Shown: in pieces, positions 14,092-18,179 of the stretch
Position numbering within the stretch: the first letter of the stretch is position 1
Layout: the number at the start of each line of letters is the position of its first letter
Assembly (NCBI GenBank): GCA_964549615.1
Contig: CAZJVP010000092.1
Location: 1 to 36,435 of the forward strand
Direction: 5' to 3'
Length of the DNA: 36,435 nucleotides
DNA from: an uncultured Thermococci archaeon
GTDB lineage: Archaea; CAYQAE01; CAYVLA01
Position numbers and translations under genes: made by a program
The notes under the pieces: model-generated
The model's database searches: none
Told to the model about the DNA's origin: nothing
The model's input: the letters and a program-made list of their open reading frames with translations, nothing else

Positions 14092-14625
14092 CTACTGTCC
14101 AGCTGCGCATCGGTTGTAGAGATCCATGAATCTGTCGCGGTCCGTTCTTACCAGGTCGTATTCGGATAGCCATTTGTCTCTGTCCGCCCGCATGTTCTCG
14201 TATTCCGATAGCCATTTGTCTCGATCGTCTCGCATATTTTCGTATTCCGACAGCCATTTGTCCCTGTCCGCCCGCATGTTCTCGTACAGCAGCATCCACC
14301 TGTCCCGCTCAGCCTTGGCCTGCTCGTAGTTGGCGATCCAGGCGTCGCGCTCGGCCTGGGCAACAGCGAGGCTTTGGAGCGAGCGGTTACGGAGTTCCTC
14401 CATCTCGCCTCTGAGCTGGTAGTACTGCTGCTTCCACGTCGACGCGCTACCGTTAAACATGCTGAGATAGCCGGCCTCGCTGGTCATGAAGATGGTCAAT
14501 GCCCCGAGGAGCAGGGCCGCGATCATCGCTATCAGCATCGGTGCCCTGCTCGGGCGTTCCTCGTCCCGCGAGCCTCTTGGTGGACGGGCCACGGTAGGAA
14601 CCTCCGGCCCTTGTCGTGCCTCCAC
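14092..14625 (-). CDS. Membrane-anchored coiled-coil protein with 14-aa tandem repeats
   Basis: TM segment MLIAMIAALLLGALTIFM followed by about six DRDKWLSEYENMRA-type units. TTTATAA lies upstream on the minus strand near 14659-14666. Confidence 0.8.
   Translation of the reverse strand: MEARQGPEVPTVARPPRGSRDEERPSRAPMLIAMIAALLLGALTIFMTSEAGYLSMFNGSASTWKQQYYQLRGEMEELRNRSLQSLAVAQAERDAWIANYEQAKAERDRWMLLYENMRADRDKWLSEYENMRDDRDKWLSEYENMRADRDKWLSEYDLVRTDRDRFMDLYNRCAAGQ
14114..14365. repeat. Coding tandem repeat, 42-bp period, about 6 units (3 near-identical)
   Basis: Units begin TCGTA at 14156, 14198, 14240, 14282 and 14324. The three core units share TCGTATTCsGAyAGCCATTTGTC. Confidence 0.9.
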
Positions 14626-14854
14626 TATTTCACCCCTGGGGCTATGGGGAATGCCGGAATTATAAAGGGTTCCGTGCGCGACCCCGGTGGGGACGCGATC
14701 TCCGGGTGGGTGTTGGTAGCCAGAGCCCTAGACGCCGTGGCACTTGCTTCGTGGCGCTATTCTGAAGGAATCGGGGTAGATCGGAATACCATCTGGGATG
14801 TGTGCCGAGGACTTTGGATCTTTCCCTTGTCGCTCGTACTTTTCCGTCTATGGC

Positions 14855-14888
14855 TTCCAAGGGGGCGATGCAGATTGGTTGGTTGTTG
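14855..14888 (+). repeat. Left target-site duplication (9 bp) and left terminal inverted repeat (25 bp)
   Basis: TTCCAAGGG | GGCGATGCAGATTGGTTGGTTGTTG. Confidence 0.9.
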
Positions 14889-14904
14889 GTCTGGGGGAGG
14901 AACC

Positions 14905-14937
14905 GAAAGATATTTATACGTTACTGTAGTAACGTAT
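14905..14937 (+). promoter_or_regulatory. IS-internal promoter with overlapping palindromic operator
   Basis: GAAAGA-TATTTATA (BRE/TATA) overlapped by ATACGTTAC-TGTA-GTAACGTAT (14916-14937). ATG at 14942, consistent with a leaderless transcript. Confidence 0.8.
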
Positions 14938-14941
14938 TGTG

Positions 14942-15325
14942 ATGGGTGGCACACTTGAAGGAGAACTCATAGTGTTCTCAGCCAACAAGATGCCCAAGAC
15001 CGAACAGGTCAAGCTCAGCAAACGGCTCTACGGATACAGGGACCGATCACAACGATCCAAGTACCTCTACGACAGGGAAGGGCTGCTGAACAGGATACCC
15101 CACATAATCCCGCTCGGGAGAAAGGCCATCCTGGTCACCAGGGCGGAGGACGCCCAAACCATCATCCAGCTCCTACAGGAGTACGGTGCCCAGATCTATG
15201 CCCGGGCCATCAAACTGGACGAAGAGGACCTCAAGATCCTGTGCAGAGACCTGGAACATCCCCGGGGCCGGGATGGTGGGGAGAGCGGTTTGGATGAGGA
15301 GGCCCAGACCCAAGACGATCAGTAG
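14942..15325 (+). CDS. IS-borne small protein with predicted Cas2/VapD/PaaX-central-like ferredoxin fold
   Basis: Pattern beta(ELIVFS)-helix(KTEQVKLSKRLYG)-insert(KYLYDREGLL)-beta-beta(HIIPLGRKAILV)-helix(EDAQTIIQLLQEYG)-beta(QIYARAI). The ORF is well supported; the fold is inferred. Confidence 0.65.
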   Translation: MGGTLEGELIVFSANKMPKTEQVKLSKRLYGYRDRSQRSKYLYDREGLLNRIPHIIPLGRKAILVTRAEDAQTIIQLLQEYGAQIYARAIKLDEEDLKILCRDLEHPRGRDGGESGLDEEAQTQDDQ

Positions 15326-16700
15326 CCTGTCCCCAGGGCTCCTGAGAGAGTCCATATCCAGCATCCTCCTCCAGCTCCAGGACAAGACCTACGATGATCC
15401 TCCGCCGTGTCCCAGGTGCGGGTCGGAGGATGGGAGGAGGCATGGTAAGAGGAAGCGTATCTACGCCACCATCATCGCCGAGAAAGGCTTCCAGAGGATC
15501 CGCGTCTGGATCAAGAGGTACAGGTGCAAAAGGTGCGGCAAGCATTATCGGTCCAGATCCCCCTTCTACCCGGGCTGTCTCTACGCCCGGCCGGTGGTGG
15601 ACACCTGTCTCTACCTGGCCGCCCACAACCCTTTCTGCAGGGTTGAGGCCATACTGCAGAGCTGGGGGCTACAGATAGATAGGGACACGATCCGGAGCTA
15701 TGTCCGCAGATTCGGCAGAAGGGCAAGAAACATGGCCGGGGTAAGGATCGACACCGCCTCTGTGGCTATAAACCTTGTCAGGCTCCTGTTCGACGCAGCG
15801 GATGTTGAGGAGCTCAAAACAAGGCTGCCCGGGGAGGTGTTCCAGGATGTGGGGGATGAGACCTATCCAGCCGTGAAGGGGGCCAAGAAAAGGCTGAGAC
15901 AGGAGAATGCTGAAAGGGCTCTGAGAGGCGAGAAAGAGAGGCCTTACCCCGAGTCCCATACCCTTGCCTGCGTCTTTGAGGTGTTCCACAATTTCTTCGT
16001 ATCCGTCATGGTCACCTCGACAGCCTTCAACACAATGCTTGCCGATGCTCTTAAGAGGCCTGCCAGGGGCTGTGTGGGGAGCGTGAGGGACGGCTCCAAG
16101 TGCTACAGAGACCCCCACATCGACTGCGTCAACCATAAGGCCAGGAGAATGATCGCCAGGGATGGGGCCTACAGAAGGCTCAAGAGAGAGGCAGAGAGCA
16201 GGGGCCAGATAGAGGAGTACTGCAAGATGTTCTATGGTAGAGTAAGGGAGGAGGAGGCCGCACGGGCGGCCCAGGCTTATCCCGAGCTTGTAGACCGGGA
16301 AGGCCTGTTTGTTGGGGCCTTGTCCACCAACTCCATGGAGGGTGGGAACTGGAGGATCAAGTTCGGGTTAAGGGTTCCCTACCTGGATCCGGCCTCCGAG
16401 GAGGCTAGAACCCTACTCATAGCCTTACAGGACTCTATGAAGACATTTGACGCAGGCAGGCCGTGCGAAAGCTTCGCTCACAGGCATGGCTGTTTTGATT
16501 ACTCATCCGTCATGGCAGAGGCAGACAAAACCTACGATAGGGATCCGGACACATTCCCTGGTCAAGGTAGGCGCAGCGACTCCTCGAGCGATCATGCCCC
16601 AAACCATACCGAGGAGTTCGCTCTCTGGCTCAACAAGGCGGTGGAAAGAGTCCAGCGAACAAGAGACAGAGCCAACAACATCCTCACAACAACCATTTAA
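15294..16700 (+). CDS. DDE transposase with N-terminal zinc ribbon and HTH
   Basis: CPRC...CKRC zinc ribbon, HTH (FCRVEAILQSWGLQIDRDTIRSYVRRFG), catalytic candidates DETY, VRDGSKCY and STNSMEGGN, and CVNH 12 residues after the second Asp. The stop codon lies inside the right TIR. Start is ATG 15294 or 15273. Confidence 0.85.
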   Translation: MRRPRPKTISSLSPGLLRESISSILLQLQDKTYDDPPPCPRCGSEDGRRHGKRKRIYATIIAEKGFQRIRVWIKRYRCKRCGKHYRSRSPFYPGCLYARPVVDTCLYLAAHNPFCRVEAILQSWGLQIDRDTIRSYVRRFGRRARNMAGVRIDTASVAINLVRLLFDAADVEELKTRLPGEVFQDVGDETYPAVKGAKKRLRQENAERALRGEKERPYPESHTLACVFEVFHNFFVSVMVTSTAFNTMLADALKRPARGCVGSVRDGSKCYRDPHIDCVNHKARRMIARDGAYRRLKREAESRGQIEEYCKMFYGRVREEEAARAAQAYPELVDREGLFVGALSTNSMEGGNWRIKFGLRVPYLDPASEEARTLLIALQDSMKTFDAGRPCESFAHRHGCFDYSSVMAEADKTYDRDPDTFPGQGRRSDSSSDHAPNHTEEFALWLNKAVERVQRTRDRANNILTTTI

Positions 16701-16720
16701 TCTGCATCACCTTCCAAGGG
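16687..16720 (-). repeat. Right terminal inverted repeat (25 bp) and right target-site duplication (9 bp)
   Basis: CAACAACCATTTAATCTGCATCACC | TTCCAAGGG. Confidence 0.9.
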
Positions 16721-16724
16721 GGAC

Positions 16725-17411: not shown

Positions 17412-18179
17412 GTGGAGATCTTCCTAGACACCGCCAATCTGGACGAGATACGGCAGATCCTGCCGTGGGGCATCATATCCGGACTGACGACGAACCAGAA
17501 GATACTGTTGAGGGAGAAAGGGGTCGACTTCCGGCAGCATATGGAGACCATCCTGTCCCTGATCGAGGGGCCCGTGAGCGTCGAGGTTACCTCGTCCCGC
17601 CCCGACGAGTTCATCGATGAGGCGAGGGAGTACGCGTCCTGGGGCGATCAGGTCGTCATAAAGATCCCGATGTACGGCGATGGCCGTGCCCTCGAGGCGG
17701 TTTCGATCCTAGAAAAGGAGGGCATCGCCACGAACGTGACCGCCCTGATGTCGCCCAACCAGGTTCTGCTGGCGGCGTGCGCAGGGGCAACCTATGCAAG
17801 CATATTCTTCAGGCGCATCAGGGACTACGGGGATGACCCAGAGCGGGTGATCACGCAGTCCAGACAGCTGCTTGACTGGGACGGGTTCAAGACGCGGATC
17901 ATCGCCGGAAGCATCCGCGACCCGCAGGACGTCATCCAGGCTGGCGTGGCTGGCGCACATGTGGTGACCATCCCGTACAAGATACTTGTCCAGATGCCGA
18001 TGCACCCCAAGACCGAGGAGACGATCGCGGAGTTCGACCGGGCTTGGGAGGAGTTCCGCCGCGCATCGGTAGTCGAGGCGGATACGGTTGTTGGCAGGAC
18101 GCGGGCAAGGCCGGCCCCTGCGAAACGAGCCATCGTGGGAGGGGCTCGGAGGGAGGTCCTTCCTTCCAGCCGTTTGTGA
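17412..18179 (+). CDS. tal: Transaldolase (short TalC/FSA-like family)
   Basis: IFLDTA, GLTTNQ, GPVSVEV, VVIKIP (Schiff-base Lys), TNVT, GATYASIFFRR, AGSIR, GAHVVTIP, HPKT. Confidence 0.92.
   Translation: MEIFLDTANLDEIRQILPWGIISGLTTNQKILLREKGVDFRQHMETILSLIEGPVSVEVTSSRPDEFIDEAREYASWGDQVVIKIPMYGDGRALEAVSILEKEGIATNVTALMSPNQVLLAACAGATYASIFFRRIRDYGDDPERVITQSRQLLDWDGFKTRIIAGSIRDPQDVIQAGVAGAHVVTIPYKILVQMPMHPKTEETIAEFDRAWEEFRRASVVEADTVVGRTRARPAPAKRAIVGGARREVLPSSRL

Follow-up and report, generated by a model that had tools for sequence, protein, structure and literature searches.

Several families of insertion sequences (IS) use, besides their transposase, accessory proteins or protective 5′ hairpins. 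In IS66, the accessory genes are tnpA and tnpB, and the target duplications are of 8 bp. In IS1, the ends fit GGnnnTG, the duplications are of 8–9 bp, and the Zn-finger protein InsA is fused to InsB by a −1 frameshift. It is also known that some elements code for a protein that represses their transposase, examples being InsA of IS1, the resolvase of Tn3, and the Mu repressor. The stretch of DNA analyzed here (called the window; 36,435 nt, contig CAZJVP010000092.1 of an uncultured Thermococci archaeon) contains at 14864–16711 an intact IS of 1848 bp, filled by two open reading frames (ORFs): a small gene, called F (or orfA), and a transposase gene. The element is recently mobile, F is conserved in its relatives, and a perfect palindrome at the promoter of F varies together with F. 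With somewhat better than even confidence, we read F as a small archaeal transcription factor recruited as autoregulator of the IS.

An intact and recently mobile element

The element is bounded by inverted ends of 25 nt each (84% complementary, or 21/25, according to the repeat finder) and by a perfect 9-bp target site duplication (TSD), both copies of which read TTCCAAGGG. The exact direct repeat reaches 12 nt (14854–14865 and 16711–16722), as it extends into the terminal bases of the ends. Gene F starts at GTG 14939 or ATG 14942 and runs to 15325. The transposase frame is open over 15186–16700, with ATG 15294 as the conserved start (MRRPRPK in all relatives) of a 468-aa product, and the transposase gene overlaps the 3′ end of F by 32 nt. 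Ends, duplication, and overlapping ORFs had all been described in a first-pass annotation of the window, and the sequence and the repeat finder confirm them. The position of the IS is intergenic, with no gene interrupted.

Recent mobility can be read from empty sites and from other copies, both of which the first-pass annotation had proposed to look for. In the genome of the window (G000, 3.2 Mb in 104 contigs), a whole-genome search gives one copy of the IS only, with neither a second copy nor solo ends; a degenerate transposase fragment lies on contig C57 (23941–24138, L008). In another genome of the same genus (G002), the sequences that flank the IS in the window are ~146 nt apart on one contig, with a single copy of the target and no IS. 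In a public hot-spring sequencing run (X1), a contig joins 14853 straight to 16711 and skips 1857 bases, which correspond to the IS and one copy of the duplication. Another contig of X1 spans the right junction, and a further one has the left end of the IS after a different 30-nt flank. This run may be the sample from which the window was assembled; it shows a polymorphism in the population and not an independent confirmation. Near-identical elements with other left flanks are found on two metagenome contigs. L017 begins with 43 nt that are identical to contig C16 of G000, where that sequence is uninterrupted; L017 may be a chimera assembled from two copies, with a second site implied even so. 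In L022, the identity is 98.2% over 1368 nt, and the 2.1-kb flank has no counterpart in G000.

Degenerate fragments of related transposases, some with in-frame stops, are also present in G002 on contigs C78, C52, C19, C157, and C128. On C78, an F homolog adjoins a 68-residue N-terminal fragment of a transposase.

Relatives of the transposase were confirmed in 117 metagenome stretches (80 of these kept for analysis) and occur at five genome loci, labeled Hadarchaeota/Hadarchaeum, Nitrososphaeria, and one “Deltaproteobacteria” metagenome-assembled genome. They form 21 clusters at 90% identity, and the transposase profile matches 266 clusters, many of them fragments, at E ≤ 0.001 among 1.84 billion representatives. 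The end sequence GG[CT]G[AG]TGCAGATT flanks the relatives at 20 other loci, and a core G-Y-G-R-T-G-C/T-A-G-A is common to the ends of the whole family. Duplications of 9 bp occur also in L020, L025, L041, L045, and L086 (six elements with that of the window). With the end sequence at 20 other loci, five other 9-bp duplications, and the empty sites, the anatomy seen in the window is beyond chance. The elements fall into size classes of ~1.42–1.49 kb (transposase only), ~1.59–1.62 kb, ~1.68–1.69 kb (with F, in the 1.68-kb elements, in opposite orientation to the transposase gene), and 1.80–1.99 kb (the clade of the window).

Gene F and the palindrome at its predicted promoter

Gene F is a conserved part of the mobile unit, not cargo. 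Transposases at least 60% identical to that of the window are found at 21 related loci (20 from metagenomes and the genome locus L002). Wherever ~250 nt or more of upstream DNA is available (17/17 loci), an F homolog is directly upstream on the same strand, and it is inside the inverted ends wherever both ends are present; at the other four loci (L002, L033, L061, L075), the sequence breaks off at the transposase start or no more than 76 nt from it. Since F lies inside the ends throughout these examinable loci, it is not a one-off acquisition, and the first-pass view that the small gene belongs to the mobile unit holds. The 17 loci represent approximately ten distinct elements, several being the same element assembled repeatedly. 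In a tree of 59 full-length transposases, the clade of the window is monophyletic (SH-aLRT 100) and comprises 14 F-carrying rows and one that is cut. Over the same element pairs, F diverges faster than the transposase (31%–96% vs. 57%–98% identity).

In sister elements, the place of F is occupied by a different gene, B, a 60–70-aa ORF unrelated to F and found in at least 11 loci (L040, L041, L042, L046, L048, L053/L055, L056, L058, L069, L073, L077). B is divergent from the transposase gene and inside the ends (e.g., L041:1364–1543, minus strand). Its product is very basic, with a motif “K..GK..YYY...” followed by a helix. B has no Pfam match, gives 0.5% against F in profile–profile comparison with HHalign, and shows no relation to the accessory proteins of IS66. 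Between B and the transposase start, these elements have inverted or direct repeats of their own, at the place equivalent to that of the F palindrome (see below). Other lineages of the family are without any small gene. A divergently oriented F, upstream of the transposase gene and inside the ends, occurs in the 1.68-kb elements L037/L039 and L052/L054 and also in L092; the divergent-F elements form a clade nested among the B-carrying ones. This distribution fits a small-gene position that would be a variable and dispensable regulator slot.

F also occurs outside of this element family. A profile search with F gives 122 clusters, most of ~89 aa, on contigs of 1.3–1.9 kb. In L035, F is divergent beside a 334-aa transposase that reaches 140.6 bits with the NCBIfam IS5 model (cut-off 140), and perfect 15-nt inverted repeats (843–857 and 2171–2185) enclose both genes. 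In L176 (135–1529), F is beside a distant relative of that transposase (27%–28% identity), which matches IS5 models below the cut-off; the inverted repeats are at ~135–149 and 1515–1529. In Hadarchaeota, F homologs are present in 10/66 genomes, with 13 matches. The ORFs adjoining F were scanned for ten of these matches (loci L172–L184): one is the transposase of L176, three have no match, and six are ordinary enzymes (a 3-hydroxyacyl-CoA dehydrogenase, two AMP-binding acyl-CoA ligases, an aldolase of the ADH-synthase type, a class-V aminotransferase, and a TIM-barrel protein). With such neighbors, chromosomal F may act locally to regulate fatty-acid or CoA metabolism. Gene context thus shows F as a free-standing family of small proteins, acquired by at least two IS families that are unrelated to each other and in three gene arrangements.

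One could see in F a passenger gene without control over transposition, such as a host-type regulator or an addiction-like gene, since chromosomal homologs exist and other IS lineages do without it. Against this, F is kept in every examinable element of the clade of the window, down to transposase identities of ~60%. It is always first in the operon, under the sole recognizable promoter, and its overlap with the transposase gene is conserved. Its associations with two IS families, in three architectures, are independent, and it matches no toxin, antitoxin, or defense family. A passenger role is, in our opinion, quite improbable.

Upstream of F, 12 aligned left ends of the clade of the window share the block cGAAAGATATTTATAC, after which the sequence varies. 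By the archaeal promoter consensus, we take this block to be a B recognition element (BRE) and a TATA box. The variable stretch holds a perfect palindrome in 14/14 left ends, of the form TAC-N5–6 ... N5–6-GTA, which begins in the TATA box and stops a few bases before the start codon of F. In the 36 kb of the window, the half-site has two perfect copies, both in the palindrome and none at the IS ends. The palindromes of the 14 left ends are of five sequence types and, in our comparisons, the type follows the identity of F, not that of the transposase. Among ten elements (45 pairs), pairs with the same palindrome type (n = 9) have F identities of 66%–96% and transposase identities of 64%–98%; for pairs with different types (n = 36), the ranges are 31%–57% and 57%–83%. 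Thus, F identity separates the two sets without overlap, whereas transposase identity overlaps. In the pair L001 and L018, the transposases are 83% identical, F is only 56% identical, and the palindromes differ.

Palindromes accompany F in its other contexts as well. In the divergent-F elements, the TATA box is separated from the transposase start by a palindrome with arms ACTGACCTTA and TAAGGTCAGT. In the IS5-type element L035, TACTGAAA..TTTCAGTA is upstream of F, and upstream of chromosomal homologs there are TACGGTTA..TAACCGTA, TTACGGTT..AACCGTAA, and others. The half-sites TACGGTAAT, TACGGTTA, and TTACGGTT, and also TACTGAAG and TACTGAAA, recur across contexts. At the Hadarchaeota loci, palindromes with arms of at least 8 nt are rare (six in 25.6 kb, with 0.025 expected per 105 nt); four of these six are in the 105-nt promoter windows of F homologs (4/9 homologs). 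Within the palindromes, the core of 8–10 pairs is entirely Watson–Crick, with G-T only at the innermost or outermost pairs (9/144 positions scored).

Alternatively, F could be a cofactor of transposition (scaffold, target selector, or end-binding helper). In that case, the palindrome would be bound by the transposase helix–turn–helix (HTH) or by a host factor, or would form a hairpin that keeps read-through transcripts from being translated. Translational coupling is indeed suggested by the overlap of the two genes, whose order is fixed throughout the clade of the window. Further, both arms of the palindrome change together, as in a hairpin, and the end of the IS5-type element L035 begins with TACGGTGT, which resembles the half-sites associated with F. 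On the other hand, F accompanies two unrelated transposase families and stands beside metabolic genes where there is no transposase. In related elements, it is replaced by an unrelated ORF or absent, and the chemistry of transposition therefore does not need F. As for the palindrome, it tracks F and not the transposase, its perfect half-sites are missing from the IS ends, its G-T pairs are confined to the edges, and it is upstream of the predicted start site. We consider such a cofactor role unlikely.

A putative archaeal repressor

The product of F has a basic core (pI 9.1) and matches nothing in Pfam, NCBIfam, PHROGs, PADLOC, or a PDB profile search. The structural model (from 30 sequences; pLDDT 81.9, and above 90 over the core) displays the order β-α-β-β ... 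β-α-β-α, followed by a disordered acidic tail. With Foldseek, there is no match in the PDB at E ≤ 0.001; the list is headed by permutants of ribosomal protein S6, CutA1, and designed ferredoxin folds, and the matches in BFVD are equally unspecific α/β proteins. Residues S37, Y44, R46, G48, and L50 are invariant in 30 members, with G32, Y33, D35, and Y42 nearly so, and these conserved residues sit in the hairpin between strands 2 and 3. In the Atlas, the neighbors of F are unnamed archaeal clusters with scores below 0.9, which are leads only. There, the model of F (window:14939–15322) aligns with the part outside the Pfam domain of ~195-aa archaeal NTP_transf_2/Polbeta proteins (TM 0.65–0.66 by query), and these nucleotidyltransferase-domain proteins may hold a fused F fold.

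The first-pass annotation had called F Cas2/VapD-like and had imagined a scaffold, with F partnering an RNase H-fold integrase as Cas2 does Cas1. The model core (β-α-β-β ... β-α-β) does belong to the broad ferredoxin-like class that includes Cas2, and Cas2 chains appear in the Foldseek list. Their scores are not significant, however (E 0.08–0.11, TM 0.24–0.37), and they rank under S6, CutA1, and designed proteins; no Pfam or NCBIfam model of Cas2 or VapD matches F at E ≤ 1. The active-site Asp of Cas2 is at the end of strand 1. In F, neither an Asp nor a Glu is conserved along that strand (LIVFSAN, IIVYKNR, or IISYKLQ), and nowhere in the family is an acidic residue invariant. The genomic company is also different, with F homologs in IS5-family elements, beside metabolic genes, and with no transposase. 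The likeness in the model is one of small size and of a very common fold class only, and a Cas2-type partnership appears to us scarcely tenable. Among the three roles first suggested for F (regulator, target selector, and scaffold), the comparative data favor that of regulator.

From comparative anatomy, we infer for the element a promoter with its start site, an F dimer that binds the palindrome, and repression. The IS would form one operon, with a BRE/TATA promoter inside the left end, then the palindrome, F, and the transposase gene. Transcription in archaea starts ~25–30 nt downstream of the TATA box. With TTTATA at 14913–14918 and ATG 14942 ~29 nt after its first base, the predicted start is at or next to this ATG, which would make the F mRNA leaderless. 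The palindrome would lie wholly between the TATA box and the predicted +1, the position at which repressors of archaea obstruct TBP/TFB or RNA polymerase. There, a dimer of F would bind and shut off the F–transposase operon, the transposase being presumably translated from the same mRNA as F. A burst of expression after insertion would be followed by self-limitation, with transposase kept low once the element is established. The wider F family would also regulate chromosomal genes, with recruitment by at least two unrelated IS families.

What speaks for autoregulation is a symmetric site, at the own promoter of F, that co-varies with F. Several points weigh on the other side. Searches of F (Pfam, NCBIfam, PHROGs, PADLOC, PDB profiles, Foldseek in PDB and BFVD) reveal no known DNA-binding domain, so that a DNA-binding role for this fold is unprecedented within the searched resources. 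F and the palindrome are a few bases apart and would be co-inherited through linkage alone. Further, a symmetric change of both arms is also expected of an RNA or DNA hairpin; the occurrence of half-sites in unrelated contexts, the fixed position relative to the TATA box, and the restriction of G-T to the palindrome edges are suggestive against a hairpin, not decisive. Five of the nine Hadarchaeota F homologs are without a palindrome of 8-nt arms in the promoter window, and L172 and L182 are without even one of 7-nt arms. Finally, the sequencing-run search lists no RNA run, and the start site is placed by inference.

Like InsA, the Tn3 resolvase, and the Mu repressor, F is proposed to be a small DNA-binding protein that silences a transposase promoter. 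Unlike those, F is neither derived from a transposase nor a recombinase, and it has no recognized DNA-binding domain. In addition, its putative operator is TATA-proximal, in the archaeal manner, and would be exchanged with F as a module. Such an exchange between elements is suggested by the five matched F/palindrome types on similar transposases, and the types may keep co-resident elements from repressing one another. In a bolder and rather doubtful version, F would found a new class of archaeal DNA-binding transcription factors of ferredoxin-like fold, with the β-hairpin GY.D.S..G.Y.Y.R.G.L as reading head, captured repeatedly with its operator by unrelated IS families as a plug-in repressor. 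The five F/operator types would then be “immunity groups,” in which co-resident copies escape mutual repression as phage repressors do.

The proposal offers a testable function for more than 120 clusters of small archaeal proteins without annotation, and the likely DNA target of several members can be read directly from the sequence. Should F bind its palindrome, the F/operator variants would be orthogonal repressor–operator pairs from thermophilic archaea and would illustrate the ways in which an IS adjusts and diversifies its own regulation.

Family of the transposase and surroundings of the element

The transposase of the window (Table 1), a DDE enzyme of RNase H fold, belongs to no Pfam or NCBIfam transposase family at threshold, which answers the profile-database check suggested at first. 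The motif spacing given then (D-78-D-12-CVNH, with the Glu 83 residues after the second Asp) is exact in the 468-aa protein, and D188, D266, H281, and E349 are invariant across 37 aligned relatives. Signals below threshold in Pfam and NCBIfam (IS66, ISKra4, ISL3, and Zn-ribbon models) are N-terminal only. The IS66 model NF033517 gives 34.4 bits (cut-off 180) over residues 68–182 only. For PF03050, the IS66 family of Pfam, the window protein has no match, and 3/38 relatives match with N-terminal fragments. The ISKra4 model NF033572 gives 19.8 bits (cut-off 205), and HHalign with ISKra4 gives 0.3%, with a two-sequence profile of low power. The IS256 family PF00872 (Transposase_mut) has no match. 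Among solved structures, the AlphaFold model (37 sequences, mean pLDDT 89.8) comes closest in fold to ISCth4, an IS256-family transposase (PDB 6xgx and 6xg8; Foldseek E 1.3e-6, probability 1.00, ~418 aligned columns, TM 0.34–0.42).

For profile–profile comparison, IS66, IS256, and ISL3 were each represented by 19–20 ORFs from 121 genomes of one bacterial phylum. The family of the window gives 97.8% with IS66 (E 1.2e-12, 340 columns), 90.9% with ISL3 (E 1.1e-6), and 86.7% with IS256 (E 4.3e-6). Since the controls among IS66, IS256, and ISL3 give similar values (96.2%–97.6%), the profiles place the family beside IS66 at an inter-family distance, inside the IS66/IS256/ISL3 (Mutator-like) assemblage. 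In the IS66 alignment, the two CxxC motifs and the HTH correspond, DET falls on DET, DG..Y on D.y..Y, and C..H..R on C.aH..R; confidence is low around the catalytic Glu.

Each of the described families shares some features with the window element and lacks others. With IS66, the best match to TnpC is accompanied by small accessory genes upstream of the transposase gene in both. However, the window element is far under the family cut-offs, its duplication is of 9 bp and its ends begin with GGYG, and F is unrelated to TnpA and TnpB (0.0%–0.3% in HHalign against TnpA-like and TnpB-like clusters from 20 IS66 loci). With IS256 and Mutator-like elements, the common points are the closest solved fold, a CxxH that follows the second Asp, and helices that separate this Asp from the Glu; the low TM, the missing PF00872 match, and an HHalign value below that of IS66 set them apart. 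With IS1, the resemblance is in the ends (GGCGATG and GGTGATG fit GGnnnTG), in the 9-bp duplication, and in the N-terminal Zn finger and HTH of the transposase. On the other hand, there is no similarity in the catalytic domain (no match to PF03400 or the NCBIfam IS1 model at E ≤ 1, and only a 15-bit match to the Zn-finger domain). HHalign gives 0.1% with Escherichia coli InsB and 8.2% with InsA, a single E. coli copy being used as template, with low power, as PF03400 is unmatched in the 121 genomes. Moreover, the upstream gene is not a Zn-finger InsA, and the window transposase carries its own Zn-ribbon and its own start, in the +1 frame relative to F, without a −1 frameshift. Of the IS1 and Mutator traits listed in the first-pass annotation, the Zn-ribbon/HTH, the Mutator-like D-D-CxxH-E core, and the IS1-like ends stand, while kinship with IS1 is not borne out by the proteins.

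A programmed frameshift fusion of F and the transposase was also considered and rejected. The frames differ by +1, the length of the open frame upstream varies between relatives, and the MRRP.. start is conserved even in single-gene elements.

As to classification only, the element could fall in a group that ISfinder already lists, for instance an archaeal subgroup under IS1 or ISNCY. The GGnnnTG ends, the 9-bp duplication, and the Zn-ribbon and HTH would agree with this, and ISfinder tables hold an archaeal IS1 subgroup of larger two-ORF elements, ISMhu11, a name with no occurrence in the full-text literature searched. The comparisons with the IS1 models, InsB, and InsA argue against it; in addition, none of the 23 members read in the clusters of ten relatives carries a source name, and full-text searches turned up no description of the family. 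We rate this possibility as low. Judged by Pfam, NCBIfam, source names, and full-text searches, the family appears new, with ISfinder outside of the comparison. Also apparently new are the variable regulator slot and an F family whose putative operators are readable from the sequence. Ends, length of the duplication, size classes, and transposase motifs now define the family, which standard profile libraries fail to recognize and which annotation pipelines thus miss or call hypothetical. In its main text, an archaeal IS survey (PMC13343696) uses the generic “new” class of ISEScan, and its supplements may list this family.

Other proteins share parts of the transposase. Dozens of proteins of ~180–220 aa match only its N-terminal Zn-ribbon/HTH (profile positions ~11–140), and one of 1784 aa joins an N-terminus of this type to STAND NTPase and TPR domains. 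DUF6431 is weakly matched by 19/38 scanned relatives (best E 1.9e-5). On a Hadarchaeum contig with a single-gene relative (L004:1879–4703), two more transposase-like ORFs follow downstream, one with a Zn-finger N-terminus, and the region looks like an IS-rich patch.

Table 1. Coordinates in the window of the element, its parts, and the neighboring genes
Feature	Position	Strand	Remarks
Membrane protein gene, 748 aa	11798–14044		Upstream of the IS
Repeat-rich ORF, 177 aa	14092–14625	−	Left neighbor of the IS; no Pfam match
Left TSD copy, TTCCAAGGG	14855–14863		Repeat finder; single-copy at the orthologous site of G002 and in the empty-site joint of X1
Left inverted end (IRL), GGCGATGCAGATT...	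14864–14888	+	Repeat-finder pair; core conserved in relatives
Predicted archaeal-type promoter	14903–14918	+	BRE-like CCGAAAG, then TTTATA at 14913–14918; conserved block cGAAAGATATTTATAC
Proposed operator, perfect palindrome ATACGTTACT-gt-AGTAACGTAT	14916–14937		22 bp; overlaps the 3′ end of the TATA box
orfA (F)	14942–15325	+	127 aa (128 aa from GTG 14939); basic core, acidic disordered tail; Atlas protein begins at ATG 14942
Transposase, 468 aa	15294–16700	+	Zn-ribbon C39, C42, C78, C81; HTH; DDE core
D188	15855–15857	+	Catalytic-core Asp of the transposase
D266	16089–16091	+	78 after D188
CVNH 278–281	16125–16136	+	C278 12 after D266
E349	16338–16340	+	83 after D266
Right inverted end (IRR)	16687–16711	−	Repeat-finder pair; core conserved in relatives
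Right TSD copy, TTCCAAGGG	16712–16720		Sequence reading and repeat finder
ORF, 63 aa	16770–16961		Right neighbor of the IS; no Pfam match
Transaldolase/FSA gene	17412–18179		Beyond the 63-aa ORF

The 177-aa ORF to the left of the IS, which falls in no Pfam family, has a probable N-terminal membrane segment and tandem peptide repeats of the type RDKWLSEYENMR(A/D)D, with the corresponding DNA repeats at ~14126–14329.

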